Shown: positions 8,596 through 25,441 of the stretch, piece by piece | Layout of the letters: each line of letters opens with the position of its first letter | Position numbering within the stretch: the first letter of the stretch is position 1 | Assembly: GCA_021836035.1 (NCBI GenBank) | Contig: JAKBJL010000001.1 | Coordinates: 223,765 to 287,764, forward strand | Reading direction: 5' to 3' | Source: a bacterium | GTDB lineage: Bacteria > Patescibacteriota > Microgenomatia > JAMCZE01 | Length of the DNA stretch: 64,000 nucleotides | The notes under the pieces: model-generated | Told to the model about the DNA's origin: nothing | The model's input: only the letters and a program-made list of their open reading frames with translations | The model's database searches: none | Made by a program: the position numbers and the translations under genes

Positions 8596-8697
8596 GTGTT
8601 TCTTAATTTAGTTTATCTTAGGCTGCCCGGCCGTGTCAAATTATTTTTCCTTAAATTCTATTCTCTTCTGGGTTCCCGGAGGGAAAGGTAGGTAGAC

Positions 8698-8907: not shown

Positions 8908-9120
8908 CTTCCACTCTTTTCATTTTACTCCCCGCCCGGGGAATGGTAAAATTACAACCGCAACTTGGAAATATAATAAAAGTTAATATTCCCCTGCCTG
9001 CCCGCCCTGGTCCCAAGCTTGTCGAGGGACGAAGGAGGGTAGCTAGAGGGATACTCAAAGAAAAAGAACATTTAAATTTTAATATTCCCCTGTAGCTCAG
9101 TTGGTAGAGCGCCTCGCTGT

Positions 9121-9619
9121 GGGGGTTCCCTGTCTGGTATACTCATATGTGTATGCCGGAGAAAAGAACATACGCTGATCGAGCAGAATACCTTAAGAAA
9201 GCAGCCACTGCCAGAAGGCGAAAGCTGAAACAGATGGTTGCAGAATATAAGGGCGGTAAATGTGGGCTCTGTGGTTATCGTCGATGTATTTGGGCATTAG
9301 ATTTGCACCACATCGACGAAAGTATGAAGGAATTCAGTATGTCTGTCAGAGGCCTAACAAGATCTTGGGAAAAGATTAAAGCCGAAGCAGATAAATGCAT
9401 TCTTATTTGTGCAAATTGCCACAGAGAAATTCACGCCGGCGTAACGCAGCTTCCCGTTGAAAAGCGGGAATGAAAATCAGGCTAATTCGGGGAAGACCCG
9501 GCTTTGCGGGTTAATCCCGAGCTAAATAAAATGTGTAGAGACTATATACCTGAGACCTAAACCTTAAAATGGCATGGTCAAGAGATAGTCCAAGCCTTTA
9601 AGTAATTAAAGGGCACTTG
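9121..9619 (+). mobile_element. group I self-splicing intron with embedded HNH homing-endonuclease ORF
   Basis: The 5' exon ends in U and the intron ends in G (cacttG|TAA). Core elements in canonical order: P-like AATTCGGGGAAG (9485-9496), Q-like AATCCCGAGC (9513-9522), R-like GTGTAGAGACTATA (9532-9546), S-like AAGAGATAGTCC (9580-9591). P4 and P7 pairing is possible. Confidence 0.7.
9147..9473 (+). CDS. HNH (His-Me finger) homing endonuclease, intron-encoded
   Basis: CGLCGYRRCIWALDLHHIDES...CANCHREIH carries the HH...N...H motif with flanking Cys pairs. It lies entirely inside the intron. Confidence 0.7.
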   Translation: MCMPEKRTYADRAEYLKKAATARRRKLKQMVAEYKGGKCGLCGYRRCIWALDLHHIDESMKEFSMSVRGLTRSWEKIKAEADKCILICANCHREIHAGVTQLPVEKRE

Positions 9620-9645
9620 TAACGAGGATGTCGTAGGTTCGAGTC

Positions 9646-11337
9646 CTACCGGGGGAGCACTAGTGGATTTGACGCCCATTCGTCCTCTAATTGGGCAGTC
9701 AATAAGCCCTGATTATCGGTTCCGAACATTGCCGAAGTTGATGGCACCTCTTCAACGACAGGTTTTAGAAAGCAATAGGGTTTTTGCAGATTGAGACGCA
9801 ACGTTTTGTCAGTAATAGTAAAGTCCGAACCTAAAATAATTAACATCTCCCGTTTCTGCATAAGGGTAGCGTTTGCGAACTTATAACGGCAGTGGACGGC
9901 AAAATCAAAAGCCTTTTCTGCATCATTCATCCATTCATCAACTTTTTTGCCTGCGTTTCCCATCCTTTGCTCAAGAGAAATTTTTTCGGCCATAAGCGTG
10001 TCTTTTTGTGATTTAAAATCAGTGTCCGAAAGTAACGAGCCGTCCGAATTTGCCGGGGAGATTTTTAGCTGAAGCAAGTTATCCAACTTTTTAAGACAAC
10101 CATTGTAAGCCTCTTGGATTGCCCCTATGGAAGCGTTGCGAACTTCAACCTCTTGATCGTTAAGTTTGTTTAAGTGCTTTATAGCCCAATCTTTGAAACG
10201 CTCGCTTATGCCCACCTGCGACATTAAAGCGTCGATCTGTTTTTCCAGATTTCCTACTTCTACTGACCCCTGAGTGCAATTGGGGTTTTTCCGTTTCGTG
10301 CAGTGGTAGTGCACATAATGCCGGATAAGAGGGTTATCCATTTCGCTTATTTTGGTATGGCATTGCTGACAGGTGTTATTATTGGTGCAGGTGAATTTAT
10401 AATTGCATTTAGAGCAAACGCATTGCCATCGTTCTTCCGCCGTCACCATCGCTCCACATTCGCCGCATTTCATTAATCCCGTAAAGGCAAACTCTCTGAA
10501 ATGAGGACTTGGCGATCCTTTTCTTCCCAAAATAATTTGTACCTTGTTAAATTGTTCTTTTGTAACCATAGGTTCATGCTGCCCCTGAAACCACTTGCCA
10601 CTACCGACCGGAAACTCGAATAAGCCGTAGTAAAACGGGTCTCGTAACATCCGGTAAATTTGGCTTCGTGCCATTGGTTTCCCACCGATAGATTTTCGTG
10701 TTGGTGAAGTGTAGCCCCATTCATTATTTAACATGTCTAAAATTTTGGGGGGCGTATATGCTCCGGTAAGCATTAATTCCCAGCATTGTTTTATAAGAGG
10801 GAATCTTACCGGATCGTTCATGATTTTCTTGCTGCCCTTTTCGGCGTACTTGTCGTTCATATATCCCGGCTTTGCTCCGGAGGGGAGATATCCTTTCTCG
10901 GCTTTCGTTTTAAGGCCCTCTTTGACGTTTTCTCCTTTGTGGTCGTTTTCAAATTTGGCTTGCATCATAAAGAAGCCAAGCATAAATTTATCCATTGGGT
11001 TATTTCTGAATGTTTGAGACGGGGTACAAACTTCAACCAGGTCGCCGCTATCCATCAAAGAAATAATTGTGGCCGCATCTTGGGGATTCCTTGAAAGACG
11101 GTCGGGGTGCCAAACCAAAATCCTGTCGATTTTGCCCTCTTTAATCATTGATACCAGTCTTCCAAATTCGGGCCTTCCCAAGTCTTTGGCTGATTTTGCT
11201 TCACTAAAGATATTGGTGATCTTGAAGCCTAGCTTCAGGGCAACAGCTTCCAGTTCCCTAGTTTGGGATTCTATAGAAAGCATCTGCCGATCTTCTGATT
11301 CGGAAGACTTTCTGCAATATGTTGCGTAGTTACTCAT
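9646..11337 (-). CDS. large serine recombinase (integrase)
   Basis: N-terminal resolvase catalytic domain (YCRKSSESEDRQ...SIESQ, ILVWHPDRLSRN), recombinase domain and Cys-rich zinc-ribbon region. The 3' end overlaps the tRNA 3' end by 12 nt. Confidence 0.85.
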   Translation of the reverse strand: MSNYATYCRKSSESEDRQMLSIESQTRELEAVALKLGFKITNIFSEAKSAKDLGRPEFGRLVSMIKEGKIDRILVWHPDRLSRNPQDAATIISLMDSGDLVEVCTPSQTFRNNPMDKFMLGFFMMQAKFENDHKGENVKEGLKTKAEKGYLPSGAKPGYMNDKYAEKGSKKIMNDPVRFPLIKQCWELMLTGAYTPPKILDMLNNEWGYTSPTRKSIGGKPMARSQIYRMLRDPFYYGLFEFPVGSGKWFQGQHEPMVTKEQFNKVQIILGRKGSPSPHFREFAFTGLMKCGECGAMVTAEERWQCVCSKCNYKFTCTNNNTCQQCHTKISEMDNPLIRHYVHYHCTKRKNPNCTQGSVEVGNLEKQIDALMSQVGISERFKDWAIKHLNKLNDQEVEVRNASIGAIQEAYNGCLKKLDNLLQLKISPANSDGSLLSDTDFKSQKDTLMAEKISLEQRMGNAGKKVDEWMNDAEKAFDFAVHCRYKFANATLMQKREMLIILGSDFTITDKTLRLNLQKPYCFLKPVVEEVPSTSAMFGTDNQGLLTAQLEDEWASNPLVLPR

Positions 11338-11446
11338 AACATTAAGCGCCCCCGCCGGTTGTGCTCAGAACGGTCAGGTTCTGTCCGACGGAGGCGCTAA
11401 AAAACCCGACCTATTTATCTGAGCACAATATTATTATTCGCTTATA

Positions 11447-11884
11447 TTAAAACTTTGTCAAATATCGGAAACCCTTGGACTTGTTTTGCTTTTTATACGA
11501 AAGTCGGTGGCAAAGTCGGCAAGCCATTATTTCGCTATTAGCGGGAATATATAAGAATCTAGCGCGACGGCCGCAGAGATTACAAAGAAACCAAAAGACA
11601 TATCCTTTTCCCAGATTCGACAGGCTGTAGGTAAGACCAACCTTGTTTTCAGCCGAAAGATCAACTTGTCCTTGTGCTTCCCGCCTAAGATTAATGGTAG
11701 TACCAAGCCTGACAAAATCCACCAACTGTTGTATATCCTTCTCGTTAGTCAAATTGAGGGTTGGCTTACCCTTTTCGGTCAAAAGTCGGTTAAATTTTCT
11801 TATATCCTCACTTACAACATTTGCCACATTTATTACCTGTGAGTTTTCAATTAGTGGCCGCTTACTCATATTAATCGGATACAT
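11447..11884 (-). CDS. hypothetical protein with C-terminal zinc-ribbon (possible small DNA-binding/excision factor)
   Basis: CNLCGRRARF...CRLCH. Confidence 0.3.
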   Translation of the reverse strand: MYPINMSKRPLIENSQVINVANVVSEDIRKFNRLLTEKGKPTLNLTNEKDIQQLVDFVRLGTTINLRREAQGQVDLSAENKVGLTYSLSNLGKGYVFWFLCNLCGRRARFLYIPANSEIMACRLCHRLSYKKQNKSKGFRYLTKF

Positions 11885-11914
11885 ATAAAAAACCTAAATC
11901 ACTAACAAACATTA

Positions 11915-13300
11915 CTAATCATTAAGTTCCATCTGCTCCATGTGTGTTTCTTCTTCTTTAATATTTTCTGTTACCCCACCATCTAACTCACTATAGTTTT
12001 GTGGTGAAGATATAGTGAGTGGCACGGTGGGGTAAATAAGAATCTTTCGTTTATCCAGCTTGTCAGCTTCGGAATAGATTAAGCCTGCCGTTTCTAGCAT
12101 GGGAATTATCTGCTGACGTAGTTGCCAATCAGGGATAAAACGACCATAAACACGGTAGTGCTCCTGGGAAATTTCTTGTCGGGTCAATCCGGTTTTCTCT
12201 CCATCAGTCAACTCACTATTCTTTTTATTGTAGGCTGGGGTAATCACGTCATAGAAAAAATTAAACACATATGGTGGTAGGTTCAGCTCTTGGCTCTCGG
12301 CTATTTGATCCCAAACAGCAAACGCATCGTTAATGTCCGTTTCGTTGGCGACTATTCCTTGCTCTTCCCGGTCCCTGAACCACAAATTAAGTAGGGCAAA
12401 AATCTTAACAAGATTAATCACCCGGCTGATGTCCCTTTGGTGTCTGGGTTTAAGCATCTTTACCCTTTCCATGAATTTGCTGATTACCAAATTTTCAGCG
12501 GGGATACGCACGTTCTGAATCTTTTCCTGTCTGATGGCTCTAATCCTATCAATCAAAAGTTTTCGTTCTGGATTGTTAATCAAGGCAAGCCGGTACGCAT
12601 CAGGGTTAACCTCTTTTTTAATCTTTTCCAACACCGCCTGACGAATTTTTTCTTGGTTTATTTCTGGAGAAAGTAATAAAAATCTCGTCGCTTCTTGTTC
12701 GTCAATCCTCAATCCTGCGGTGCAAAACACTACAACCGGATAACCAATCAAGAGTATATTTTTTGTTCGCAAACCAGCCTTCTGCGATTTGTCAGTTATT
12801 TTAAGGTGAATTTCCTTTTTATCGTGGGAAAGAATAGGCCGTAAATGCTGAAGTAGTAAGTCATGGGGTTGATCCAGAAAGATAATTATTTTCCTGGAGA
12901 GATCGACAACATAGCCTTTTCTCTTTTCGTCAAAGACACCATAATCATGGAAGAAGGCGGTGGGGCTACAATAGCCGACTTCAATAATATCCTCTTGGGG
13001 AAACAGTTTGGCTACTTCGGTAGGGATGAATGATTTGCCGGTAGACGATGGGGCATTGAAACTGATGTTTAATTGGCTGTCACCAGTGTAGGCTGACAGT
13101 TCAGTTAAAAAAGTAAGGAGTTTATTGATCTCGTCTTTTTTGATGGTCTGGCCTAAGACAGAAACCAAATCGTCCACACAAAGGGGCTTAATATTGGAAA
13201 CGTCGACAAAGGTTGACTCTTCCACCATTTCTTTTTCCGGTTCGATTGTCAACGAATCGACTATTTCTTCTGCTTGTTTAACAATTGCCTCGTCGTTCAT
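11915..13300 (-). CDS. P-loop NTPase, putative replication helicase/primase-associated protein of the element
   Basis: Walker A NAPSSTGKSF. The ATG (MNDEAIVKQ) overlaps the upstream stop as ATGA. The track ORF is extended artificially to 13453. Confidence 0.5.
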   Translation of the reverse strand: MNDEAIVKQAEEIVDSLTIEPEKEMVEESTFVDVSNIKPLCVDDLVSVLGQTIKKDEINKLLTFLTELSAYTGDSQLNISFNAPSSTGKSFIPTEVAKLFPQEDIIEVGYCSPTAFFHDYGVFDEKRKGYVVDLSRKIIIFLDQPHDLLLQHLRPILSHDKKEIHLKITDKSQKAGLRTKNILLIGYPVVVFCTAGLRIDEQEATRFLLLSPEINQEKIRQAVLEKIKKEVNPDAYRLALINNPERKLLIDRIRAIRQEKIQNVRIPAENLVISKFMERVKMLKPRHQRDISRVINLVKIFALLNLWFRDREEQGIVANETDINDAFAVWDQIAESQELNLPPYVFNFFYDVITPAYNKKNSELTDGEKTGLTRQEISQEHYRVYGRFIPDWQLRQQIIPMLETAGLIYSEADKLDKRKILIYPTVPLTISSPQNYSELDGGVTENIKEEETHMEQMELND

Positions 13301-13914
13301 AGTAAATATTTCATTGCTTCGGTAAAACTTAACTCTTTTGTCTTTTCTATAAAATTGATCGAGTCTCCGTGTGCTCCACACCCAAAACAATGATAAGTGT
13401 TTGTATCTTCGTATATAACAAACGATGGCGTCTTTTCCTCGTGCAGTGGGCAAAGCCCTGTTAGTCTTCGGCCAATTCGTCTCAATTTGCCTTCATAAAG
13501 CCTTTCTAGGGGCACTTGGCGAGCTTGTTGAACCTCAAAATAGCCAAAACGATTTAATTTATTCGAAAGTTGACGCGGTAGTGGTTTCTCGCTAACTTTT
13601 CGCCAAATTTCAGTCCAATAACGCAACCATTTTCTAATCATTAGATACTCTTCCGCATGGTAGGTTGGAAGAATTTTTAATACACTTCTCTCAACCGATT
13701 CTCTGGCAGAATTTTCGACGGCGATGGCCATTTGCTCTTGAATCAATTTCTTTGTCTCGTTGGCTAGTTCAAGCAGCTCCTTTATTTTCTCTATACTGAC
13801 AATTTTTAAGCCGTCCTCAAATCCCGTAATGTCCGGTAAAGTTGACGGTGGATAAACAAAATGCCGTAACTGTTTGCCTAGTTTAATATGGTCAAATTTA
13901 TTTTGATTTTGCAT
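13297..13914 (-). CDS. CHC2 zinc-finger (primase-type) protein
   Basis: CPLHEEKTPSFVIYEDTNTYHCFGCGAHGD closely mirrors the DnaG zinc finger at 3406..5217. Confidence 0.6.
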   Translation of the reverse strand: MQNQNKFDHIKLGKQLRHFVYPPSTLPDITGFEDGLKIVSIEKIKELLELANETKKLIQEQMAIAVENSARESVERSVLKILPTYHAEEYLMIRKWLRYWTEIWRKVSEKPLPRQLSNKLNRFGYFEVQQARQVPLERLYEGKLRRIGRRLTGLCPLHEEKTPSFVIYEDTNTYHCFGCGAHGDSINFIEKTKELSFTEAMKYLL

Positions 13915-14098
13915 ATTTTTTGTCTAGTTCTTTTTGCCAATTCTTGGGAATTGGCTGGTAAATTAACTTAAACAGTCGTAAAAGTGCGTTCGCCTTTTCA
14001 TAAGCCTCGCTGTCCGACAGGTTTTCATTGAACTGCGCTTTATAAATGTCTTTGAACTCGTTGACGGTGCTATGGCTTAACATATTAGGTTCCGCCAT
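13898..14098 (-). CDS. small hypothetical protein
   Basis: 66-aa ORF in the leftward element operon. Confidence 0.3.
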   Translation of the reverse strand: MAEPNMLSHSTVNEFKDIYKAQFNENLSDSEAYEKANALLRLFKLIYQPIPKNWQKELDKKYAKSK

Positions 14099-14330
14099 GT
14101 AGCCTCGTCCGAAGTTCGTTTATCGCCTCTATCAAATCACGGCTAGCTATGCGGTTTGAACGATTCCAGTGGCTTGAAATTATCTCTGGGGCAAGGTTTT
14201 TGGGATCATCGAAGACAAAATGAACAAATTTTCCTGTGCCTGGTTCCAGGCGTATAAGTTTTAGCCCCGAAGCGAGCAAACAGGCACTTATATAGAAGTC
14301 TTTGGACTTGTAAACTGTTACATTTTCCAT
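14085..14330 (-). CDS. small hypothetical protein
   Basis: 81-aa ORF overlapping its neighbour by 14 nt. Confidence 0.3.
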   Translation of the reverse strand: MENVTVYKSKDFYISACLLASGLKLIRLEPGTGKFVHFVFDDPKNLAPEIISSHWNRSNRIASRDLIEAINELRTRLHGGT

Positions 14331-14385
14331 AATGCGACTTTAGAAGGCACGCAGGGGGGTTATCAATAGTAGTAGTGGGGAGATG

Positions 14386-15243
14386 TTAGCTAGAACTTGG
14401 GGAGTTGGAAGGTAGGATTTGGGGAGATGTTGGCTTCAGGATTGCAGAATTATTTACAAAAATCCCAAAACCTTTTTTCTGAATAGGGATCAACGCTACT
14501 CCTAACACTGGATGCTTTTCAATTTCTCTCTGGATTTGCTTATAGGTATCCTCCAACCTGTCACTAACTTTAGTTAGTCTATTTCTATTTTTTTGCTGTT
14601 CATAAGTTGTCACACTAGAGTCTTCCCTTAATTCATAAAATTGTTCTTTTGGCACGATGGAATTTATGTTTTTTATCATCAAATCGACGGTTTTTCTTTT
14701 CACTTCTCCTTCAAACTTGAGGTTTTGACCTAGAAAATAAAGATCACCGGTCTGTAATACAAATTGAGGTGAAGTGTTACTGTACCAACGTGTAAATTCG
14801 ACTAATTTCTGTTTATTAATTAGAACAGAATATTGCCCCGCCTCAACTGGCCCCCAATTTTCTCTACTATTTCGCCATTCGTAATAAAAATGCGCGACTG
14901 TCTGATCGTTTGGCAACTTTAAGAAGTTTAAATACCCTTTGTCCCTGGCGATCGTAGTCAGGAAATCTTTTCCGTTTGCACTATAACTTCCAGATATGGC
15001 GTTACCCCATCTTGTAAACCAACGATTAGGCATCAATGCTTCTATCACGCCTTGTGCTAAGAGCTCTTGAGGCACGCGGTCATAACTATAACCGTAAGAG
15101 GTTGGGATTTCTTTTATAGAGGGGTAAGTGAATGTTCTATTGGCCGTTTTTGCAATGTTAACAACTGACCAATATTCGGCTGGTGGGAGCGCATCGTAAA
15201 TATACGAACAAAGAGTCACGCAATCGTTGATTAAACCATTCAT
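14386..15243 (-). CDS. hypothetical protein (element-encoded)
   Basis: 285-aa intact ORF with no recognised motif. Confidence 0.35.
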   Translation of the reverse strand: MNGLINDCVTLCSYIYDALPPAEYWSVVNIAKTANRTFTYPSIKEIPTSYGYSYDRVPQELLAQGVIEALMPNRWFTRWGNAISGSYSANGKDFLTTIARDKGYLNFLKLPNDQTVAHFYYEWRNSRENWGPVEAGQYSVLINKQKLVEFTRWYSNTSPQFVLQTGDLYFLGQNLKFEGEVKRKTVDLMIKNINSIVPKEQFYELREDSSVTTYEQQKNRNRLTKVSDRLEDTYKQIQREIEKHPVLGVALIPIQKKGFGIFVNNSAILKPTSPQILPSNSPSSS

Positions 15244-15276
15244 ATTACATTTTCATTTGTAGTAACGGGAAAAATC

Positions 15277-15840
15277 CTAGTTCCCAGTTTGCACAACCTG
15301 ATTCTGTCCAATTACAGCAGTTTGCGCATTTAAATTTAAACTTAGAGTTGGTTGTCGCATAGACTTCAAAGCAAAAAGGGAAGTTTGGAATTGTTTGTTG
15401 GCTCTTTCTAACTCCTTATTAAACATTTCTAATAATCTGATCCCAGAATCGCTGATGAAGCCTTTGGAAAGAACATTATTAATTTTTTGTTGGGTTTGGA
15501 GTACTAAAACAAAATTAAGCACGACTATTTCTGCGCGAGCATTCTCGCTGGGGGTTTGGCATTGGTATTCTGTGCGAAATTTCCGAAGCAAATCGACGGC
15601 AAATGTTTTATAACAATCTTCAACAGAAAAGGATAAAAGCGTTCCGTTATCAAACTCAAATAATGTCATTGCCTTAAAAGTGCTATCTTCGGGGCGTGCT
15701 TGATGTTCTCCACTGCAGTTTGAAAGCTCCTTGTCCGCTTGCCTCAAAACGCAGTCGGGGTCTATCGCTGTCTTACACGAAGCTAGAGATTTTCTGATCT
15801 CTTCAAGAGTTTTTACTGGTGCAACTGCCTTATCCTCCAT
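15277..15840 (-). CDS. hypothetical protein (element-encoded)
   Basis: 187-aa intact ORF. Confidence 0.35.
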   Translation of the reverse strand: MEDKAVAPVKTLEEIRKSLASCKTAIDPDCVLRQADKELSNCSGEHQARPEDSTFKAMTLFEFDNGTLLSFSVEDCYKTFAVDLLRKFRTEYQCQTPSENARAEIVVLNFVLVLQTQQKINNVLSKGFISDSGIRLLEMFNKELERANKQFQTSLFALKSMRQPTLSLNLNAQTAVIGQNQVVQTGN

Positions 15841-15871
15841 AGCCGCATTTTACTACGATTTCCCCCCTTCG

Positions 15872-16102
15872 CTAGAGGCCCATAAACAACTCCGAGAGGC
15901 TAATCTTCATTTTTCTGCAAATGCTAATTAAACGACTCAAAGTAACATTTCTTTCCCCTCTTTCTATAAACCCCATATAACTTCTATCAACTCCCGCTTC
16001 AAAGGCTAGATCTTCTTGTGTCATGTCTCTCTCATCTCTGAGCTGTTTTATTCTTTGCCCCAATCTTTTGTGGGTGACCGAAATAGCTTCCATAACACCC
16101 AC
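15872..16102 (-). CDS. XRE-family helix-turn-helix transcriptional regulator (repressor or R-M controller-like)
   Basis: LRDERDMTQEDLAFEAGVDRSYMGFIERGERNVTLSRLISICRKM is an HTH_3 signature. Divergent to the methyltransferase operon. Confidence 0.7.
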   Translation of the reverse strand: MGVMEAISVTHKRLGQRIKQLRDERDMTQEDLAFEAGVDRSYMGFIERGERNVTLSRLISICRKMKISLSELFMGL

Positions 16103-16198
16103 AACTTATTCCAAAAGGGACTACTAGACCAGCTCCTGTATGTAGCATTATGGCCAGTACTCGTGCTATATTGGGACAAGTAGTAGTCAGTATAAAAT

Positions 16199-17308
16199 AT
16201 GGCAAATAGTAATCTTGCCAACGCAAAAAGGACAAAAAACGACGAGTTTTATACCCAGTACAGTGATATTCAAAAAGAGATTGAAGCGTATCTGGACCGA
16301 AACCCTGATGTGTTCCGAAGTAAGGTGGTATATTGCAACTGCGACGACCCGTTTGAAAGTAACTTCTTTCGTTACTTCGTGCTTAATTTCAAAAAACTTG
16401 GGCTGAAACAACTAATCACTACTAGCTATAAACCTTCACCTATAGCTAATACACAGCTGCAGTTATTTGGTGACGATAAAACACTCACTAAATCAAAAGG
16501 TCGTCCCAAAATAAACGCCAATAAATTCATTATTAACGAAGTGCATGATATTGACGGTAACGGCGAATTTAATTTGAAGGATATTGCCAAACAGTTAAGG
16601 GCAAACAAACACAATGAATGGACTCCACTAGAAGGTGATGGCGATTTTCGTAGCGATGAGTCTATAAATCTGCTGAAACAATCTGACATCGTGGTAACTA
16701 ATCCGCCGTTCAGTCTGTTTCGTGAGTATATAAAACAACTTGTTGATTTTAATAAAAAGTTTTTGATCATAGGCAACATGAACGCGATTACCTATATAGA
16801 GGTATTTCCATTACTTAAAGAGAATATGGTTTGGTTAGGTAATAATTACAAGGTCAATGCTGGGGCAATGTTTTTTGAGATACCAGAAAAGATTGCTAAT
16901 TTAGAGCAAGTTCGTGAAATTAAGACAAGCGAAAGTGGTAAGAAAGTTTATATTACACGCGTGCAAGGCATTCGTTGGTTCACTAATCTTGACCATGGCC
17001 GTCGTCACCAGCCACTACAACTAATGACGGAGGCAGAAATAATAAAGTTTTCAACGAAAAAACCGTTTGAGAAATATGATAACTATGATGCGATTGAGAT
17101 CTCGTTAGTTAAAAACATTCCAAGCGACTATAAAGGGGTAATGGGCGTACCGGTTAGTTTTTTAGACAGTTATAATCCTGATCAATTTGAAATTTTAGGG
17201 TCGAATCGTGGTGTTGATCAAGATCCAAATAAAATTTACGGCAGAGGGTCATACCTGAATGGAAAAGAAATTTATAAGAGATTATTTATAAGACATAGGA
17301 AAAAATAA
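16199..17308 (+). CDS. DNA amino-methyltransferase (N6-adenine/N4-cytosine class, NPPF motif IV)
   Basis: [11 protein letters not shown] catalytic motif IV. Possible AdoMet motif NCDDPFES upstream. Confidence 0.55.
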
Positions 17309-17309
17309 T

Positions 17310-18479
17310 ATGGAAACAACATTTAAAACCGACATTACTGTCAAAGACATTTGCGAGGGTTTTGTCTATAACGAGTTAGAAGGTAAAGGATTGTTTGGTC
17401 TGGCTGGCAAACTTACTATTCAGCCGGAATATCAGCGCAACTATATCTATGCTTCTGACGGAGGCAAAAAAGAAATGGCCGTAATCGAATCGGTTCTTAA
17501 GAGATACCCAATAGGATTGATCTATTTCAATAAAGTAAGCGACAATAATTTAGAAGTTTTGGACGGACAACAACGCATCACAAGCCTCGGACGGTTCTTG
17601 ACTGACAAATTTGCCATTAAAGATGAAAACGGCATGGAGCAATATTTTAGTGGTATGGCAAAAGATAAACAGGATAAAATTTTAAAAACTCCTTTGCTTA
17701 TTTACGAATGCGAAGGAAAAGAAAGCGAGATAAAAGAATGGTTTAAAACAATAAATATTGCCGGTGTCCCACTTAGTGATCAAGAGTTGCTTAATGCAGT
17801 ATATTCAGGACCGTTCGTAACGCTTTGTAAGGAGGAATTTAGTAATAGTCAAAACGCTAACATCCAAAAATGGGGTGCTTACGTATCTGGTAGCGTAAAC
17901 CGGCAGGAGTTTTTGGAACGCGCTTTGGATTGGGTAAGCAAAGGCAACATTGGCGATTATATGAGCCGTCACCGCTACGACAAAAGTATCACCGAGCTAA
18001 AAACATATTTTAATAGTGTGATCGATTGGATTTCCAGCGTGTTTACCGATGTGGAGAGCGAAATGCGAGGACTGGAATGGGGGCGACTATATGAACAGTA
18101 CCATTCTAAAACTTATGATCCTGCCAAAGTGTCGGCAGAAGTGCAAAAGCTCTATGGCGATCCGTATATCAAAAGTCGTAAGGGTGTTTTTGAGTTTGTC
18201 TTAGGCGGTTCAGTCGACACGAAACTATTAGAAGTCCGAGTTTTTGATGAAGCAACAAAAAAAGCTGTTTACACAACACAGACTGCTGATGCTAAAACCA
18301 AAGGGAAGTCAAACTGTCCGCTTTGTGCTATTGGACATGACGCCAATAAGAGTAAGATTTGGAATTTTGACGAGATGGACGCAGATCACGTAGCAGCATG
18401 GAGTAAAGGTGGTGCAACTTCAGCTAAGAATTGTCAGATGCTTTGCAGGACACATAATCGAGCAAAAGGAAATCGATAA
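17310..18479 (+). CDS. DUF262 (ParB-like NTPase, DGQQR motif) + C-terminal HNH/DUF1524 nuclease, GmrSD-like
   Basis: [13 protein letters not shown] in the N-domain. [12 protein letters not shown]...[15 protein letters not shown] is an HNH motif in the C-domain. The start lies 2 nt after the methyltransferase stop. Confidence 0.7.
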
Positions 18480-18496
18480 TGTAGTATGTTTTTAAT

Positions 18497-18835
18497 ATGG
18501 ACGATCAACAAAAAATTATTGAGGAACTAAAAAGCGAAATCGTCTCTTTAAAGGTTCGGTTACGTCGGGTTGAAAGTTTTATTGAGTCAATGCCAAATCC
18601 AGATGAACATCTTCAAAGATTGGATGACAAAGGCGTAGATGTACTTCTTGAAGCAGCTCAAGAGATCGTTTCCCAGTATGATAGAGCCAGTGCCAGTTTA
18701 CTCCAAAGAAAGTTATCTATTGGTTACGCTAGAGCTGCAGCCCTTTTGGATTTACTGGAAGATAAGGGAATTGTTGGGCCAGCCAAAGGCTCCGAACCAA
18801 GAAATGTGCTGGTCAAAAACGAACCAAAATCTTAA
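18497..18835 (+). CDS. stand-alone FtsK-gamma (winged-helix, KOPS-binding type) domain protein with N-terminal coiled coil
   Basis: ASASLLQRKLSIGYARAAALLDLLEDKGIVGP matches the FtsK gamma domain consensus (LQRRLRIGYNRAARLIEQME..GIV). Confidence 0.65.
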   Translation: MDDQQKIIEELKSEIVSLKVRLRRVESFIESMPNPDEHLQRLDDKGVDVLLEAAQEIVSQYDRASASLLQRKLSIGYARAAALLDLLEDKGIVGPAKGSEPRNVLVKNEPKS

Positions 18836-19469
18836 TTCTGAAGTTGATCTTATTCAAAAACCAGTTACCCATAAACCAGCTAAATCTTACTACTCCTAAA
18901 CCAATAAAAGCGCCGCCCATAAAGACCGCATTACGAAGTTCGTTAGGAAAGGGTACTATTTTTTGAATCTCCCGCATAACAATATCTATTGGCTCGTTGC
19001 TAGACCAGTTGGGATAATCCTTATAGACCTGAAAGAGCCAAATGCCAATTACTACTAAAACGCCAGACCAAAATAACTCTTGGAAAAACCTCGGCCAGGT
19101 GCGAAACCAACGAGCGACAAAAGAATTGTGAATTACACCAGCAATTTGTTTCTTTTTAATAACGATTTTCGGAGTAGCCCATTTAGCCGTGTCGAAATTT
19201 TTAGCCTCTTTCCAATAGTATCGCGTTCCTCGTCTGAAGCCAAATTGTCTTATTCTAACAGGCCATAATGCCAGCCAAGAAAAACAGAAAGCTAGGAGAA
19301 GACCAAGACCCCAATTTTGAGACAATACAGTAAAGAATAGAAAAATAGCCCCAGTGAAGATTAAGAGCCAGTCCCGTTTCCCGTTTTTTCTTTGGATTAA
19401 ATAGTCAAAACTCCGCAATAACTTCGGAGCATCTCCACTTCCATACCGCCAGTTAGCTTTAATCATCAT
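18813..19469 (-). CDS. polytopic membrane protein, hypothetical
   Basis: Several hydrophobic helices. Confidence 0.4.
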   Translation of the reverse strand: MMIKANWRYGSGDAPKLLRSFDYLIQRKNGKRDWLLIFTGAIFLFFTVLSQNWGLGLLLAFCFSWLALWPVRIRQFGFRRGTRYYWKEAKNFDTAKWATPKIVIKKKQIAGVIHNSFVARWFRTWPRFFQELFWSGVLVVIGIWLFQVYKDYPNWSSNEPIDIVMREIQKIVPFPNELRNAVFMGGAFIGLGVVRFSWFMGNWFLNKINFRIKILVRF

Positions 19470-19532
19470 CTTAAATATACATCTAAAAGTATGGAAATTC
19501 GTATATTTGGCTCATCCTGATAAAATAGCCTT

Positions 19533-20030
19533 ATGAAATTAAGCAGATTGGGGTATTTTTTAGATTTAAACAATGCCAATCAGCAGGGATTTGGACCCGC
19601 TTTTCGTTTAGTGGTAGACGATAAACAAATCGACTACTTTATAATCCCAGCAGCTTTAGAATACAGTCTGAAGAATAACGGAATCCTTCCAATTTTTAAC
19701 TGTAGCTGTGGTGTAGTAGGCTGTGGCGGAGCATATGTAAAGGTTGCCCATAAAAAGGACCGGGTTGTGTGGGAAAAGTTATATTCCGGAACAAGTTGCG
19801 GTGAGGAAATTGACGAGAAGGATGACGAGGTGTCGCACATGAATTTCCGGACTTACGCTTTAGTGGCAGAAGACAAATCCGAACTAAATCTACCCTTGGA
19901 GTTCAGTGCTAAAAATTACAAGGCGGTTATTATGAAGATATTGTCTTCTCCGGAATTTAAGCAGTATGAAGAACAAGGTTATATCCATGATAAGAATAGC
20001 TTTGCTAAAAAAGACTTCTTTATGCCTTAG
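19533..20030 (+). CDS. hypothetical protein
   Basis: 165-aa ORF containing a CSCGVVGCGG stretch. Confidence 0.35.
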   Translation: MKLSRLGYFLDLNNANQQGFGPAFRLVVDDKQIDYFIIPAALEYSLKNNGILPIFNCSCGVVGCGGAYVKVAHKKDRVVWEKLYSGTSCGEEIDEKDDEVSHMNFRTYALVAEDKSELNLPLEFSAKNYKAVIMKILSSPEFKQYEEQGYIHDKNSFAKKDFFMP

Positions 20031-20051
20031 GGCGTTATAATAAAGCAACCG

Positions 20052-20138
20052 TTGCGTTGCTGATTACTGGTTACGGCTGTCGTTGAACCAGTATTGTCGA
20101 AAGACTAGGCAACGCAAAAAATTGTTTGTGACACAAAC
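20052..20138. repeat. nested inverted repeats plus a perfect 15-nt palindrome GTTTGTGACACAAAC (20124-20138)
   Basis: Outer inverted repeat TTGCGTTGC (20052-20060) / GCAACGCAA (20109-20117). Inner inverted repeat TACTGGTT / AACCAGTA. The palindrome lies ~90 nt upstream of the 20227 gene. Confidence 0.5.
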
Positions 20139-20226
20139 TCCGAAAAGGATCGCGATAAGACATGAGGCTATTTATATTTAGTTGTATGATTATAGATAGC
20201 AACGGTAGTCCATAAATTGTTGTTAT

Positions 20227-22002
20227 ATGAAAGCAACCGAAAAAGCTAAGGGCCCCGCAATAACTTGGGCGATTTCACTTTTTATCTTCATAGCAAATAT
20301 TGTTGTTGGGACAGAGTTCTTTAGAACTACAATTGACCGATCTGCCTATGGAAAATCACAACTGGCAATACTAGTCGCCCTAGTGTCTTTTATTGTCGGT
20401 TGTCTATCTTTTGCTTTAGGCTTTATTATTTACGTTGGGTTCAGATTGGAAAGAAAAAAAGGCGCGCATCTACGGACAAGACTTGTTAGACAATTTATAA
20501 AGTTAATTCTTGTATCTTTGTTTCTCCCCATAGATGTCATTGTTCAAGCTGTCAGATATAAACCTGCAAAATCACTCAGTCCGGGTACGAAATATCGAGT
20601 TAGAGGGCTACTAATTAAGCTACTTCCTGTTCTCTTCTCTCTGGTTTTATTGTTTCCAATTTGGTTATCAGCTTACTTAGCTACCGGCATAATAGGAGTG
20701 ACAATAACTGAAGAAAAACTGGGCTACAAAAGTTCTGATTACCCTATCGTAGGAACTGGCTCTATGTACCCCACTTTTCCCAAAAGCGATAAAAAGAGCC
20801 CAATCGAGCAATACAAAGATATTGTCGGCTCCTATGCGGCGCTTCCATATCCTAATGGAGTAGTTCTTTTCGGAAAGCGATATCTTGGTCATGAAATTCA
20901 GCGAGGCGACATTGTGACTTTTCGTAACGAAGCGACACTGGAACTAACTAAAAAGCTGTATGGTGAACCTGGTGGATTTTTGAAAAGAGTGATTGCGCTG
21001 CCAGGGGATACAATAGAAATTAAAGGTGGCGTTGTGATTTTAAATGGCCAACCATTAAAAGAACCGTACACATTCAAACCCCAATCTACCTTCGAAGAAA
21101 GTTTTCTGAAGGAGTGCAAACAAATTACCGTTCCGCCAGGAAAGTTTTTTGCTATGGGCGACAACAGAAAAGGTAGTGGTGACTCAAGAGAAATTGGTTT
21201 TGTCGATCTGAAAGATATTGACCATATGATTCCTATGGATAGTCAGAAAGGAATATTAGACAAGAGCTGGCGGGATACTTCCAAAGACTTAAATGAGGAA
21301 TCAAAAATCAAGTTAGATAAAACCCGCTATTTAGACTTACTTAATGAAAAACGGAAGGAAGCAAATCTTAGGCCTCTTAAGTACCAGCAGTTGCTAGAGC
21401 AATCCGCGACTAAGAGGGGAGAAATAATGCTGAAATATAATGATTTTTCCTGGGAAGCTACCCAAAGTGGAAAAACCATGCTATGGGCGATGAATAGTGT
21501 TAGATATTCAAATATTGTTTATGGCGAAGCCCCTGTCCTTGGCTACTACGAAGCCGATGAGCTTATTGAAAATCAATTCCAATTTCCAAAAAGCAAGGAA
21601 TTTCTCTTGAATAAAGATTACCAGGAAGTCGGAATATCTGAAGTTGCTGGAGAAATCAATGGTTGTCCAACTCAAGTTATCGTCGAACACTTTGCTGGTT
21701 ACGTACCCCCCAATTATAAACAGTCGGACATTGACAGTTGGAAAAAGGCTCAAAGTAATTTGCGCGACATTCAACCAAACTGGGAAAGATTAAAAACATA
21801 CGAATCTTTTTACAAAGACAATAAAGATGACGTTGATAGAATAACCTCATTAATCGGACAAAGACTTAATAATATAACGGTAATTATTTCTCGAATGGAA
21901 GCAAATCAATGGTTAACTGCTCAAGAAAGAGGATTGATTGATGCAGACAAGGCACTGTCAGACGAAATTAATCAACTAGCTGACAAACTGAATAAAAAAT
22001 AA
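20227..22002 (+). CDS. fusion protein: N-terminal polytopic membrane domain + signal peptidase I (S26) + C-terminal CAP/SCP-like domain
   Basis: SPase boxes GTGSMYPTF (B), GDIVTF (C), RVIALPGDTIEI (D), FAMGDNRKGSGDSRE (E). The C-terminal region (LRPLKY...YSNIVYGEAP...CPTQVIVEHFAGY) resembles the CAP/YkwD family. Confidence 0.6.
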   Translation: MKATEKAKGPAITWAISLFIFIANIVVGTEFFRTTIDRSAYGKSQLAILVALVSFIVGCLSFALGFIIYVGFRLERKKGAHLRTRLVRQFIKLILVSLFLPIDVIVQAVRYKPAKSLSPGTKYRVRGLLIKLLPVLFSLVLLFPIWLSAYLATGIIGVTITEEKLGYKSSDYPIVGTGSMYPTFPKSDKKSPIEQYKDIVGSYAALPYPNGVVLFGKRYLGHEIQRGDIVTFRNEATLELTKKLYGEPGGFLKRVIALPGDTIEIKGGVVILNGQPLKEPYTFKPQSTFEESFLKECKQITVPPGKFFAMGDNRKGSGDSREIGFVDLKDIDHMIPMDSQKGILDKSWRDTSKDLNEESKIKLDKTRYLDLLNEKRKEANLRPLKYQQLLEQSATKRGEIMLKYNDFSWEATQSGKTMLWAMNSVRYSNIVYGEAPVLGYYEADELIENQFQFPKSKEFLLNKDYQEVGISEVAGEINGCPTQVIVEHFAGYVPPNYKQSDIDSWKKAQSNLRDIQPNWERLKTYESFYKDNKDDVDRITSLIGQRLNNITVIISRMEANQWLTAQERGLIDADKALSDEINQLADKLNKK

Positions 22003-22009
22003 GTTAATT

Positions 22010-22840
22010 ATGAAAATATATTTTGACGAGTCCGAGGATCAAGCAAAAACTCTATTCTTAGTTGGTGCTATTTTTATTTATGGTGAGGAAAATATTAACT
22101 TACTTCGTGAAGCTATTAACAAACTTAAAAATGAAAATTCATTTACCGATGGGAAAGGACAACCGCGCGAAATAAAGTACAACAAAATACTCACGGATAA
22201 AGACATTTTAGTTGCGAAAAAAGCAATCGATTTATTTTTTGCGAACAAAAATACATACTTTCGTTGCTGTGTTGTACCGTGGCGGGAGCAAGATTTGTTC
22301 AAGTTTGGTAGGAAATATCAACCTCTCAAATTAAAGAAGGCAATTTTGTATACAAATACGACAAAAAAACTTATAAAGTTAGGTATAGATGGTTTCGTTA
22401 ATGCGGTACTTATTTACGATGATCTTGTCCGATGTAAGGGAGATAAATTTGAGGAAATAATTGAAACCAGCTTCGGTCGGACAGCCCTTTCCTCTGATGG
22501 AAACCGGTCACCGATAATCAAGAACATTGCCTCAGCAAAGTCTAATTTAGATATAAACAACAGTGTTCAGCTTACAGACCTAATACTGGGCTGTGTTTTA
22601 AATCAAAATCGACCTGCGAGTAAGCAAAAAAATAAGGTGCGTGACTATCTTATTAAAAAGCTCGGGGTTAATGATTTATCAAGATCAACGTGGATTAATA
22701 AATCTTGTCCTGCAGACGAAAGAGGAATCGGTCCAAAGTTTTACATCCACTATCTAAACATTGATGAGCTAACCGTAAATAAAAAATCTAGAAAAAAGAT
22801 AAGGATGAAGAGGAAAAACAATTTGAACCGCAGTCGGTAA
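22010..22840 (+). CDS. hypothetical protein, possibly DUF3800-like
   Basis: An N-terminal MKIYFDESED pattern is typical of DUF3800. Basic C-terminus. Confidence 0.3.
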   Translation: MKIYFDESEDQAKTLFLVGAIFIYGEENINLLREAINKLKNENSFTDGKGQPREIKYNKILTDKDILVAKKAIDLFFANKNTYFRCCVVPWREQDLFKFGRKYQPLKLKKAILYTNTTKKLIKLGIDGFVNAVLIYDDLVRCKGDKFEEIIETSFGRTALSSDGNRSPIIKNIASAKSNLDINNSVQLTDLILGCVLNQNRPASKQKNKVRDYLIKKLGVNDLSRSTWINKSCPADERGIGPKFYIHYLNIDELTVNKKSRKKIRMKRKNNLNRSR

Positions 22841-23068
22841 CTCTATTAGCGATAGCTGACCAAGTCAACATCATCGAGCTACTACTTACGGTTCTATGCT
22901 TTTATTATAGCATTTGAAATTATAAAGAGATAGAAATTCGGTAAATAATGAGAAAGAAGAACCTCAGCTGGGTTAGAACCATCTAAATTTGAGCGTAAAA
23001 GTTCCGAATCGAGTCTACCGCTCGGAGCCAGTTGGCACTTAATATACCCAAACTAAGTGTAAATAAAT

Positions 23069-23671
23069 ATGTCTATATTTAAGAAAAAAATTGATTTTGG
23101 TCAGTTTGTAGCGAATTTAATATCTTTTCAGTTGGATTTCATAGAAAATAATTTCGACAAGATGGCTGTTTTGGCAGATGAGTTTAAGGTACTGACAGAA
23201 AGTGACAAAAAAGATTTATATGAAAAACTACATACGCTTTCCGTTGCAGACATTTTGCTTGAATGTCACATAAACCTTAGTAATAAGGTATCACCGCAGG
23301 AGATAAATAACTTTATTGCCGTGATGTATAGGAGATGTCTTGTTGAATATAAACACATGCAAGAAAAGGAGGCCATTGATAAGGCAAAAAGAGTTCTTGA
23401 TTTAATAGACTGTATGGAAGAAGCGAGAAAAGATCCGGATCAGACAAGGGAAAGAGCGAGTAAAAAAGGTTACGAAATAAATGGAGTAAGTGAGCATGAC
23501 GAACAAAAATACTTACTTTGTAATGGTTTCAGTGACTATTTTGCGGGTAAAGATATAAAGTCTGAAAATTGGGAAGGTAAGCATTTTGCAGCCTTCAAAA
23601 TGGCTAAAGCATTAGTAAAAGCAGACATCGTCAGAAATATGCTTAAGGAAACCACCGTTGTTTGGAGTTAG
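23069..23671 (+). CDS. hypothetical protein
   Basis: 200-aa intact AT-rich ORF. Confidence 0.35.
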   Translation: MSIFKKKIDFGQFVANLISFQLDFIENNFDKMAVLADEFKVLTESDKKDLYEKLHTLSVADILLECHINLSNKVSPQEINNFIAVMYRRCLVEYKHMQEKEAIDKAKRVLDLIDCMEEARKDPDQTRERASKKGYEINGVSEHDEQKYLLCNGFSDYFAGKDIKSENWEGKHFAAFKMAKALVKADIVRNMLKETTVVWS

Positions 23672-23680
23672 AAAAGAAGT

Positions 23681-24178
23681 ATGTCTATTCACCCGAATTT
23701 GGAGTCGATGCTTCAAGAATCACTACCCGAAATGCTTTTAGTTGCAAAATATTGCATTGAGTTTAATAAAGATACAAAGATATGGCCTGCCCCAGGTTGT
23801 TATGGTTATCCCGCAGCGGTTCTATTGCTATCTATTGCTGATAGTATCGGTTCGTATGTTGAGAAAGGTAAAGTAGAGAATCATTTTAAAGTATTTAATA
23901 ATGCTGATTATTATGGCTTGTATCTATCAGATGAAGAGCTTAGGGTATTAATTGATAATTATCGAAATTTATTATCACATAATACTGTCATGGCAACTAA
24001 TGCGGGTCTAAATATTGGATTGCCTTCAGATAATGTTTTAGAAAAGAAAGATGATAAGTATTGGTTAAACTTAGTCGCTCTTTATAATATTAGCGTTAAG
24101 GCTGTGAATTCGTTTCTTGATAATCCCAGTGTATTAAGCATCAATCTGACAATATTAAATATTTACAAGAAGCATTAA
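23681..24178 (+). CDS. hypothetical protein
   Basis: 165-aa intact AT-rich ORF. Confidence 0.35.
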   Translation: MSIHPNLESMLQESLPEMLLVAKYCIEFNKDTKIWPAPGCYGYPAAVLLLSIADSIGSYVEKGKVENHFKVFNNADYYGLYLSDEELRVLIDNYRNLLSHNTVMATNAGLNIGLPSDNVLEKKDDKYWLNLVALYNISVKAVNSFLDNPSVLSINLTILNIYKKH

Positions 24179-24529
24179 ACAAACTCCTTTATTGTTATAT
24201 TGATTTGTTTCACTTTCTCTATTTCCTCTCTGATTTGAGCAACTAGCCTAAAGTCAGAGAAAGCCTTTATACTACAAGCTAATTGCGTAGCTGTATTAGA
24301 GTTACGATTCTCGAGCCGAATATTTTGAAGCTAATTTTCATTCTCCAGGCTTATATCCCTCACCCGGACGGCTATTTAATTTCATTCTACACACCGACCA
24401 AGTAAAAAGTTCTAAAATCATCCCAATAAGCGAGCAAAAAGTTTTTTATTATTACCCCATGTCTCTTCCTTTACTATAACAATAAGACTTCTCTCTTGTT
24501 ATGCTAAACTGATTTAAGGCAAGGAGTCT

Positions 24530-25441
24530 ATGGAAGAGGAAACCGGAACATCTGCTGATAAAGCAGCGGATGTTAAAAGTGGGGCAAAACAGGTAAGGAC
24601 GCCTTTTCTTAAGCGGCTTTGGTGGATTTTCCCAATAATATTTATGATTTTTAGCGGCGTTGGGATAGCCGCTTTTCTTGGGGCCCAACACGATAGTGGA
24701 AGAGACATAAAGACGTTTAGCAAAAAGGTTGGGGAATTTGGCTGGCCCGACCCAACGGCAAAATATATTACCGCTGTCCCTGTTGATCTTAGTCAAATCC
24801 AAAGTATTTCGAAATACCGTAGCTGTGCGGGCCATAACAGGGACGGCTATAATTTTGACCGTGTTCTGGAACTCGACCGCTCCATGAAGCATTATTTTTA
24901 TCCCATTCCCCGGTTTCAGGGAACTATGGATAAAGTTAAAATGTTCGCGCCCTTTGACGGCACAATAGTCCAAATCAGCTGGGAAAAGGACAAGGATATT
25001 CCGCAGAGACCGCACCACGGAAACGGTATTGATTTTGGAACGGATAAGGATCCCAATGTCAAATTCAATTTCGGACATTTATATTTCGCCAGGGATTTTA
25101 AAGTCGGTGACAAGGTTAAATCCGGCGAACTTATCGGTTATGCGGCCCTGGAAAGCAAAATAAACGATTTTGATATTGATCTGGGAGCCAGACAATATTA
25201 CGGCAGGGATAAAGACGTGAAGGAGGTTTTAGGAAGCGCTTTTGACCATATGACGGATAATGTTCTGGCTGAATTTGCAAAATACGGGATCACTCCCGAT
25301 AATACCAAGTTCACCAAAGAATACCGCGACGCCAATCCGTGCCATTTTGATGATCCTGATTTATATATAGACGCTAAATATAAAACAGAAAACGATCCGA
25401 CCGGACGGCTAGGACCGGATTGGGTTCAGCTGAAGCATTAA
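24530..25441 (+). CDS. membrane-anchored protein with degenerate M23/LytM-like peptidase fold
   Basis: Good RBS AAGGAG. TM FLKRLWWIFPIIFMIFSGVGIAAFL. Motifs AGHNRDG (HxxxD-like) and GELIGYAA. Confidence 0.45.
   Translation: MEEETGTSADKAADVKSGAKQVRTPFLKRLWWIFPIIFMIFSGVGIAAFLGAQHDSGRDIKTFSKKVGEFGWPDPTAKYITAVPVDLSQIQSISKYRSCAGHNRDGYNFDRVLELDRSMKHYFYPIPRFQGTMDKVKMFAPFDGTIVQISWEKDKDIPQRPHHGNGIDFGTDKDPNVKFNFGHLYFARDFKVGDKVKSGELIGYAALESKINDFDIDLGARQYYGRDKDVKEVLGSAFDHMTDNVLAEFAKYGITPDNTKFTKEYRDANPCHFDDPDLYIDAKYKTENDPTGRLGPDWVQLKH

Follow-up and report, generated by a model that had tools for sequence, protein, structure and literature searches.

What is the AT-rich segment that starts inside a tRNA gene in this stretch of patescibacterial DNA, and what brought it there? 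The stretch analysed here (64,000 nucleotides, contig JAKBJL010000001.1 of assembly GCA_021836035.1, positions 223,765 to 287,764; the window in the following) contains a tRNA-Asn(GUU) gene whose 3' end is overlapped by a gene for a large serine recombinase (LSR). We consider it highly probable that positions 9660–24431 are an integrative, probably self-replicating, plasmid-like island that the LSR inserted at the 3' end of this tRNA gene; we infer both its mobility and its replication. The original prediction, made from the bare sequence, had proposed LSR-driven integration at the tRNA 3' end, and it is supported by a constant offset in the LSR family, by an arm at the far end of the island, by relatives and by composition. 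The family-level finding, tRNA-targeting serine integrases that carry their attachment site (attP) inside their own gene, is more interesting than the single island.

The recombinase and its overlap with the tRNA gene

The LSR protein matches Resolvase (PF00239, 6e-29, residues 5–149) and, above the cut-off, Recombinase (PF07508, 3e-7) in Pfam. The zinc ribbon (PF13408) scored 18.3 bits, below its cut-off of 25.3; eight Cys residues are invariant in an alignment of 29 LSR homologues (A1), and the domain is found in many homologues. R9, S11 and S12 are invariant or near-invariant in A1, all of whose invariant residues are kept in the window protein. An integrase family of PHROGs matches at 3e-67, and PDB matches include SprA of SPbeta and the integrases of TP901-1 and A118. 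By its catalytic serine domain, Recombinase domain and Cys-rich ribbon, the protein is a large serine recombinase.

As predicted, the gene ends within the last 12 nt of the tRNA, with the T-stem CTA as its stop codon (9646–9648); the discriminator G at 9657 follows 12 nt later. The tRNA antisense strand supplies the final codons and the stop, and the integrated form of the protein ends in PR*. The P' arm (9660–9685) makes up the last ~8 codons of the LSR gene.

A recombinase clade at tRNA 3' ends

At least 4,504 relatives of the LSR were found at E ≤ 1e-10 (8,000 candidates scored). We examined 80 metagenomic loci, fetched with the alignment of 29 homologues, together with the loci L010, L176, L178 and L179 and the window. 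Eleven loci end at a contig edge, leaving 74 that are informative. In 36 of these, the 3' end of the LSR gene abuts a tRNA gene on the opposite strand at an essentially constant offset. The neighbour is tRNA-Asn in 17 loci (six of them uncalled by ARAGORN, including the window and L010), tRNA-Gln in 15, tRNA-Trp in three and tRNA-His in one. The gene ends at a P-type arm, described below, in eight loci (by regular expression), and the remaining 30 show another configuration. As a rule, LSR genes of this clade abut a tRNA 3' end at a fixed offset.

Among the 120 closest LSR proteins, at least 45 read through the antisense T-loop (DSN peptide, in the context ..LPR(V/E)DSN(L/H)EP), and 42 more stop 1–3 residues past the conserved anchor, like the window LSR. 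The annotated C-termini of many LSR homologues are partly an artefact of missed tRNA genes; many of the public gene calls (P0002–P0120) run on through the antisense tRNA strand.

The gene order dnaG-rpoD, tRNA-Asn, LSR recurs with unrelated cargo in L010, L090, L113, L121, L148, L149 and L176. L010 was reached through the nearest RpoD in species-representative genomes, which is 67% identical and is labelled Patescibacteria group; as the best match of the rpoD search, it is too distant for a comparison of sites. Homologues of the LSR and of a flank protein carry the names Woese-, Levy-, Davies- and Gottesmanbacteria. Judging by these names, the host is probably a Microgenomates-like member of the Patescibacteria. 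The clade is large and mostly patescibacterial, and its apparent targeting of tRNA genes would be unusual for this class of enzyme. In the textbook view, as outlined in PMC4383910, serine integrases insert at protein-coding or intergenic sites, and tRNA genes are left to tyrosine integrases. A literature search found no later report of a tRNA-targeting serine integrase clade, and such a search cannot exclude one.

An attP-type arm in the recombinase reading frame

LSR gene ends that do not abut a tRNA adjoin a degenerate tRNA-like sequence, (A/G)GTTC(T/G)AA..TCGTCC....(G/C)AGCA, which we call the P arm. A hidden Markov model (HMM) of this arm was built from ten sites, with the window and the related locus L170 left out. 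It picked up many further sites, which abut LSR genes or mark the distal ends of integrated elements and are nearly always in tRNA orientation. The LSR reading frame continues across the arm in 21 loci, where it specifies ..DD(V/I)RT.. and, in many cases, a conserved tail of 25–30 residues after it. The codon for the Arg of this tail varies among arms (AGA, CGA, CGG), which suggests that the tail peptide may be under selection, and not the DNA site alone. Copies of the arm that mark the far end of an integrated element were found at 7.6 kb (L090), 8.6 kb (L091) and 11 kb (L143). It also occurs at the junctions of tandem units, in L143 and in L187/L188, which carry two LSR genes.

The spacing between GTTC-AA and (G/C)AGCA is 16 nt in most arms that were read, versus 11 nt in real tRNAs. 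In A118-type integrases, the attP and attB half-sites differ by a 5-bp outward shift of the motif bound by the zinc-ribbon domain. Taken alone, local alignment of the tRNA 3' end to the interiors of elements did not reach significance.

Several loci show the arm in particular settings. L143 carries it at 14272–14305, 11 kb from tRNA-Gln, with another LSR C-terminus directly after it, and the two recombinase genes of L187/L188 lie 4.6 kb apart in the same orientation (L187, 7750–15804). In L121 (8743–11321), a P-type arm is found only ~2.5 kb from the end of tRNA-Asn, which suggests a minimal element comprising little more than the recombinase gene. The LSR of L189 (10001–18445) reads into a P-type arm that is followed by the chromosomal genes parB, rpmA, rplU and ftsW. 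L124 and L102 (contigs of 276 kb and 57 kb) also have the arm at the LSR end, and L100 (67 kb) was classed among the other configurations. Given the arms of L189, L124 and L102, an arm beside the LSR therefore does not always indicate a free episome.

Boundaries and composition of the island

The features of the locus are listed in Table 1. Using the pattern GTTCKAA-N16-SAGCA, which was derived from other loci, we found one match in the window, at 24409–24436 on the plus strand, where 0.05 were expected. In the controls, the pattern occurred in one of 80 rpoD loci versus 17 LSR-fetched loci, in the latter always on the strand of tRNA orientation. The minus strand of this arm extends the LSR frame (..NPLVL-AYWDDFRTFYLVGV*), and the encoded tail AYWDDFRTFYLVGV resembles those of 54%-identical homologues (DPWNDFRT, TKWIDFRT, AQWNDYRN). 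No long direct repeats were found between the island ends, only the 5-bp GAGCA. This short repeat and the 11- versus 16-nt spacing would fit serine-integrase attachment sites, with a presumed crossover position at the repeat. The island would accordingly consist of 9660–24431 plus one copy of the core. It fits the pattern of tRNA-inserted elements, with an intact tRNA at one end, a tRNA-like fragment (here a degenerate mimic) at the other and an integrase gene inside.

Table 1. Features of the island and its attachment region in the window
Feature	Position	Strand	Evidence or remark
tRNA-Asn(GUU), 5' exon	9086–9120	+	ARAGORN on spliced sequence; aligns to intron-less tRNA-Asn of L170/L171
Group I intron in anticodon loop, between nt 35 and 36	9121–9619	+	Rfam; ends set by intron-less L170/L171 alleles
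tRNA-Asn, 3' exon (putative B arm of attL)	9620–9657	+	GTTCGAG, 11 nt, then GAGCA
LSR, 563 aa	9646–11337	-	Pfam, PHROG and PDB matches
Putative attL core region GAGCA (tRNA nt 71–73 plus CA)	9655–9659		direct repeat of 24432–24436
145-aa protein	11447–11884	-	CxxC...CxxC motifs; no family match
P-loop NTPase, 461 aa, putative replication helicase or initiator	11915–13300	-	Walker A APSSTGKS, Walker B-like IIFLDQ
205-aa protein with C-terminal CHC2 (DnaG-type) zinc finger	13297–13914	-	Pfam 4e-23; PHROG DNA primase families
Four ORFs without assigned function: 66 aa, 81 aa (DUF5659), 285 aa, 187 aa	13898–15840	-	
XRE-family HTH regulator, first gene of leftward set	15872–16102	-	Pfam HTH_3 1e-14; PHROG repressor families
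EcoRI-like adenine methyltransferase (type II)	16199–17308	+	Pfam 9.5e-123; PADLOC MTase_II 354 bits
GmrSD_N (DUF262) plus HNH nuclease	17310–18479	+	Pfam; PADLOC REase_II 271 bits, profile 6–371 of 372
FtsK-gamma winged-helix protein, 112 aa	18497–18835	+	Pfam 1.3e-23
Hydrophobic membrane protein, 218 aa	18813–19469	-	opposite to rightward set
165-aa unassigned protein	19533–20030	+	
Signal peptidase I (S26) fused to YkwD/CAP-like region, 591 aa	20227–22002	+	Pfam 2.8e-27; NCBIfam sigpep_I_bact 100 bits
DUF3800-like protein, 276 aa, candidate defence family PDC-M04A	22010–22840	+	weak Pfam; PHROG 1.5e-17; PADLOC 1.7e-14
Internal P-type arm S2	23000–23030	+	GTTCCGA, 17 nt, GAGCCA; core does not match attL
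Two ORFs, 200 aa and 165 aa	23069–24178	+	no family match
P arm of putative attR, AAAGTTCTAAAATCATCCCAATAAGC	24406–24431	+	degenerate tRNA T-arm/acceptor copy; GTTCTAA 16 nt from core
Putative attR core region GAGCA	24432–24436		followed by AAAAGTTTTTT... (B')
ORF, open reading frame; aa, amino acids.

Base composition follows the same limits. In 1-kb windows, the mean GC content is 0.393 (sd 0.024) in the island versus 0.475 (sd 0.028) outside, and the tetranucleotide correlation with the profile of 30–64 kb is 0.95 for the left flank and 0.98 for the remaining outside DNA, against 0.47–0.65 for the island. The AT-richness up to ~24.4 kb that had been noted by eye is borne out by both measures, and the composition of the window is clearly non-uniform. 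Positions 24437–30000 are intermediate (GC 0.43, tetranucleotide r 0.82), and a contig of the right flank in the Logan assemblies described below breaks again at 26580; this part may be further strain-variable DNA.

Relatives and metagenomic assemblies

A 94% identical copy of the 303-aa protein encoded in the right flank led to two contigs of metagenome-assembled genomes (MAGs), L170 and L171. They are 95% identical to the window from 24406 on, precisely where the P arm starts. On the other side, their tRNA-Asn is intron-less and ends in GGGGGAGCCA, and identity to the window stops at 9658. Beside the tRNA there is only a 104-residue C-terminal remnant of an LSR that ends inside the tRNA (profile E 1.5e-8); the genes of the window island are thus not a constant neighbour of this tRNA. 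The interval between tRNA and arm measures 8.7 kb and is different from that of the window, with 6.5 kb of unrelated genes before the shared arm. The interval from the tRNA to 24.4 kb thus varies in close relatives, and different members of one element family have occupied it. The attB sites rebuilt from the outer sites are identical in the window and L170 (tRNA...GGGGGAGCAAAAAGTTTTTT).

The window is identical to part of the 343-kb contig DAHXMT010000002.1 of MAG GCA_027371575.1, and we also searched two Logan assemblies (k=31). There, the contig of the left flank ends precisely at 9659, and the island lies on a contig of 14,806 bp (9630–24435). The breaks on the right-hand side, at 24406 and 24498, are fully explained by a co-occurring allele of the L170 type, which shares the exact-match stretches 24406–24462 and 24498–24544 with the window. 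At 9659, the break is as expected for an allele whose sequence departs from the window immediately after GAGCA, for example an empty site or another member of the family; the allele itself was not recovered. A circular form gains no support from the Logan island contig, whose ends at 9630 and 24435 lack the common sequence that a junction would need.

Could the LSR be a fixed, immobile remnant that is inherited vertically beside the tRNA, with relatives differing by deletions and ordinary recombination? LSR and RpoD identities run roughly in parallel (66% with 70%, 55% with 66%, 41% with 52–58%), decayed versions exist in relatives, and neither an empty site nor a circular form was found. Against this, the window LSR has retained each of the invariant residues of A1, and its cargo ORFs are intact. 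Loci with the same tRNA-LSR junction carry unrelated cargo, strains with a 95% identical flank have entirely different DNA in the interval, and the assembly graphs branch precisely at the core. We therefore regard such a remnant as quite improbable.

The internal arm S2 raises a more serious question about the extent of the mobile unit. The original prediction had named two candidates for the right boundary, a tRNA-like relic at ~23.03 kb and the shift in composition at ~24.4 kb. Both are real features: the latter coincides with the outer attR, and the former proved to be an internal P arm, not a displaced tRNA end. It is possible, though in our view doubtful, that the mobile unit comprises only 9660–23028 (13.4 kb) with S2 as its attR, and that 23031–24431 is an LSR-less remnant of an older tandem unit. 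Tandem arrays do exist in the family (L143, L187/L188), and in these the first P arm is the partner of the LSR closest to the tRNA. S2 codes for a tail of the LSR type (LRAVDSIRNFY; tail LRAVDSIRNFYAQI*), and GC falls from 0.397 to 0.341 past S2, 23069–24178 being the most AT-rich segment (GC 0.34). A copy of S2 that is 81% identical has been kept in L170 (2697–2753), 2.2 kb from the tRNA with its LSR remnant, amid otherwise unalignable DNA. However, S2 has the core GAGCCA and a 17-nt spacing, versus GAGCA at attL and 16 nt in most arms of the family. A search of the DNA on the right of S2 found no LSR remnant, the Logan contig has no break at S2, and the attB sites rebuilt from S2 in the window and from its counterpart S2' in L170 disagree. 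Because the outer attB sites agree between the genomes and the inner ones do not, we take the outer pair to be the functional sites of the resident LSR. S2 would then probably be the scar of an earlier tandem fusion, by analogy with composite SCC cassettes, and this non-matching arm suggests that two or more former tandem units have merged in the island.

A number of observations weigh against an island with the outer boundaries proposed here. L170 and L171 share 24406–24436 with the window at 100% and yet lack an intact element, so that the arm and GAGCA at 24.4 kb could belong to an older shared unit. The P-arm HMM scores this arm weakly (score 5.5, E 1.6 over 78 kb), and no dyad symmetry was seen in the right half-sites. 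No clean empty attB was found through the 303-aa protein of the right flank: the closest relatives carry other DNA and the distant ones are not syntenic. No circular junction was present at detectable coverage in the Logan samples, in which the element contig starts at 9630, and no family of recombination directionality factors was recognised among the island proteins. Finally, the relatives do not share the left flank of the tRNA either (L171 1–1117 is unrelated up to the first base of the tRNA), and the history of the locus is more complex than one insertion. We nevertheless keep GAGCA at 24432–24436 as the core of attR in spite of its presence in L170/L171, because it is in the register of the family, belongs to the single pattern match and yields matching attB sites.

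A search for an empty site through the 251-aa protein of the left flank gave no close homologues. This protein is encoded by one of five minus-strand genes at 6500–8907, from rpoD to the tRNA (SNase-like, YbaK-like, DUF4342, 251 aa and 69 aa); none of the relatives has these genes next to tRNA-Asn. Variability may therefore extend to the left side of the tRNA.

A model of integration and tail exchange

We propose that the attP of the free island would consist of the P arm (a degenerate copy of the variable loop, T-arm and acceptor of the tRNA), the GAGCA core and the P' arm, with 5 bp more between the GTTC-AA motif and the core than the tRNA has. If attP recombined with the tRNA end (attB, ...GGGGGAGCA|AAAAGTTTTTT), attL and attR would result. 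The former would be made of the intact tRNA body and an LSR gene ending in PR* on the antisense strand of the tRNA, and the latter of the P arm (24406–24431) and GAGCA (24432–24436), holding a detached LSR tail of 14 codons. In an island-free allele, tRNA-Asn would be followed by AAAAGTTTTTTATTATTACCCC. With the attP core inside the LSR reading frame, integration would swap the C-terminal tail of the enzyme; the reconstructed form with the tail AYWDDFRTFYLVGV has 575 aa, against 563 aa in the integrated state.

More speculatively, and with the odds rather against it, the whole LSR clade may have built attP into its own 3' coding region by imitating the 3' half of a tRNA. Integration would then replace the tail ..(L/V/W)xD(D)(V/I/F)R(T/N).. 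by 2–3 tRNA-encoded residues, giving distinct recombinase isoforms in the free and the integrated state. The presumed role of such a swap could be to help set directionality or stability. A speculative candidate for an accessory or directionality factor is the 145-aa CxxC protein encoded next to the LSR.

Cargo genes and the kind of element

The gene content largely agrees with the original prediction. The leftward genes (XRE regulator, hypothetical proteins, CHC2 protein, P-loop NTPase and recombinase) were confirmed by Pfam and by Walker motifs, and the rightward methyltransferase, DUF262-HNH nuclease and FtsK-gamma protein by Pfam, with a type II restriction-enzyme match in PADLOC in addition. 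The description as two divergent gene sets holds overall, except that the membrane-protein ORF runs against the rightward set. Likewise, membrane or secreted cargo is represented by this hydrophobic protein and the signal-peptidase protein, but the last two ORFs look cytoplasmic.

For the P-loop NTPase, we found a weak match to the Pfam family MTBMA_p00010_2nd and a 60% identical homologue in another LSR locus (L105); a PDB sequence search gave no match. DUF5659 and similar small genes recur upstream of LSR homologues. The adjacent methyltransferase and restriction-enzyme genes (16199–18479) are predicted to form a type II restriction-modification pair. The 591-aa signal-peptidase protein also matches TraF_Ti weakly (35 bits, cut-off 100). 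About nine island ORFs have no family assignment, and scans for promoters and terminators gave nothing above chance. In run SRR13170412 of the Logan data, two contigs cover the island, and a gap of 278 nt between them (16892–17169) falls inside the methyltransferase gene; a variant of the element with a different sequence at this point may co-occur.

None of the ORFs between 9.6 and 24.4 kb matched a capsid, portal, terminase or tail family in Pfam or PHROGs, in line with the prediction that capsid and terminase genes are missing, and no Pfam or NCBIfam family for a relaxase, a coupling protein or type IV secretion was found among the island ORFs. Because virion genes are lacking and a replication module and a predicted type II restriction-modification pair are present, the element is better described as a plasmid-like or defence island than as a prophage, as had been predicted; the best label is integrative plasmid-like element with defence cargo. 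A small temperate virus or phage satellite with structural or hijacking genes too divergent to be recognised is very improbable. The ORFs without family assignment would leave room for such genes, the layout of repressor, divergent region and replication genes is satellite-like, and IMG/VR holds two members of the LSR family. However, one of these two (L178) shows only primase/helicase-like and methyltransferase-like genes, packaging families are absent from the Pfam and PHROG matches as well, and 14.8 kb is small for a tailed phage.

Comparison with known systems

The LSR of the island has the same domain order (resolvase, recombinase, Cys-rich zinc ribbon) as those of phages and other elements such as phiC31, Bxb1, TP901-1, A118 and SPbeta (SprA). 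In contrast to the phage enzymes, it targets a tRNA 3' end, its P arm is a recognisable tRNA mimic and the core lies inside its own reading frame. Insertion at a tRNA 3' end, an integrase gene beside the tRNA, a tRNA-like fragment at the far end, AT-rich accessory cargo and tandem arrays are shared with Islander-type, P4-like and pSAM2-type islands. Unlike in these tyrosine-integrase islands, the enzyme is a serine recombinase, and instead of an exact copy the far fragment is a ~60% mimic that carries a 5-nt insertion. Only 5 bp are exactly identical, and the crossover would fall at the discriminator/CCA, so that no tRNA body is replaced.

SCCmec, which is inserted by CcrAB or CcrC at the 3' end of rlmH, likewise combines LSR and non-viral cargo with the 3' end of a conserved housekeeping gene, and it also forms composite or tandem cassettes and recombinase-less pseudo-elements at the same site. 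In NCBIfam, the window LSR shows weak similarity to CcrB/CcrC. The differences lie in the tRNA target, the single recombinase, the replication module and the different host phylum. Actinomycete integrative and conjugative elements and archaeal pSSVi- or pTN3-like elements share the small size, the set of integrase, replication module and regulator and the lack of virion genes; unlike in integrative plasmids, no TraB/FtsK translocase or relaxase was detected in the island, only an isolated FtsK-gamma protein.

In SSV-type integrases and in phages with integration-dependent immunity, attP lies inside a gene of the element and integration alters its product. The crossover site of the island would also lie inside its own gene. 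Here, however, this is a serine recombinase gene, and a tail of 14 residues (longer in relatives) would be swapped for two tRNA-encoded residues. As a self-contained switch, such a tail swap would be comparable to integration-dependent immunity.

Large DNA cargo is inserted mainly with serine integrases. A clade that acts on the 3' ends of at least four tRNA species would widen their target repertoire and supply natural attP/attB pairs with an attB that is present in many genomes. It would also illustrate how an attP can evolve by copying its target with a 5-bp shift in register. For the Patescibacteria, in which mobile elements are poorly described, it would identify a main class of integrative elements, whose accessory genes include restriction-modification genes and which accumulate as tandem arrays at a single tRNA.

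The host tRNA and its intron

The tRNA was predicted to contain an intron, and this was verified by Rfam and by the intron-less alleles of the relatives. ARAGORN missed tRNA-Asn(GUU) in the unspliced window and called it, with 74 nt, once 9086–9120 was joined to 9620–9658. The group I intron (RF00028 match at 9433–9612, 59 bits) is 499 nt long and contains an HNH endonuclease ORF (9147–9473; HNH PHROG matches at 3e-31). It lies outside the island and is part of its context. The intron-less allele of L170/L171 differs from the window at three positions of the 5' exon. Group I introns in tRNA-Asn were also confirmed in L010 and L113, and intron-bearing tRNA-Asn genes in L091 and L157 are apparently cut off by contig ends. 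A weak, sub-threshold match to the LOOT RNA family of Rfam (9554–9632) overlaps the 3' end of the intron in the window, and a strong one (82.5 bits) lies inside the LSR element of L148 (7107–7224, minus strand).

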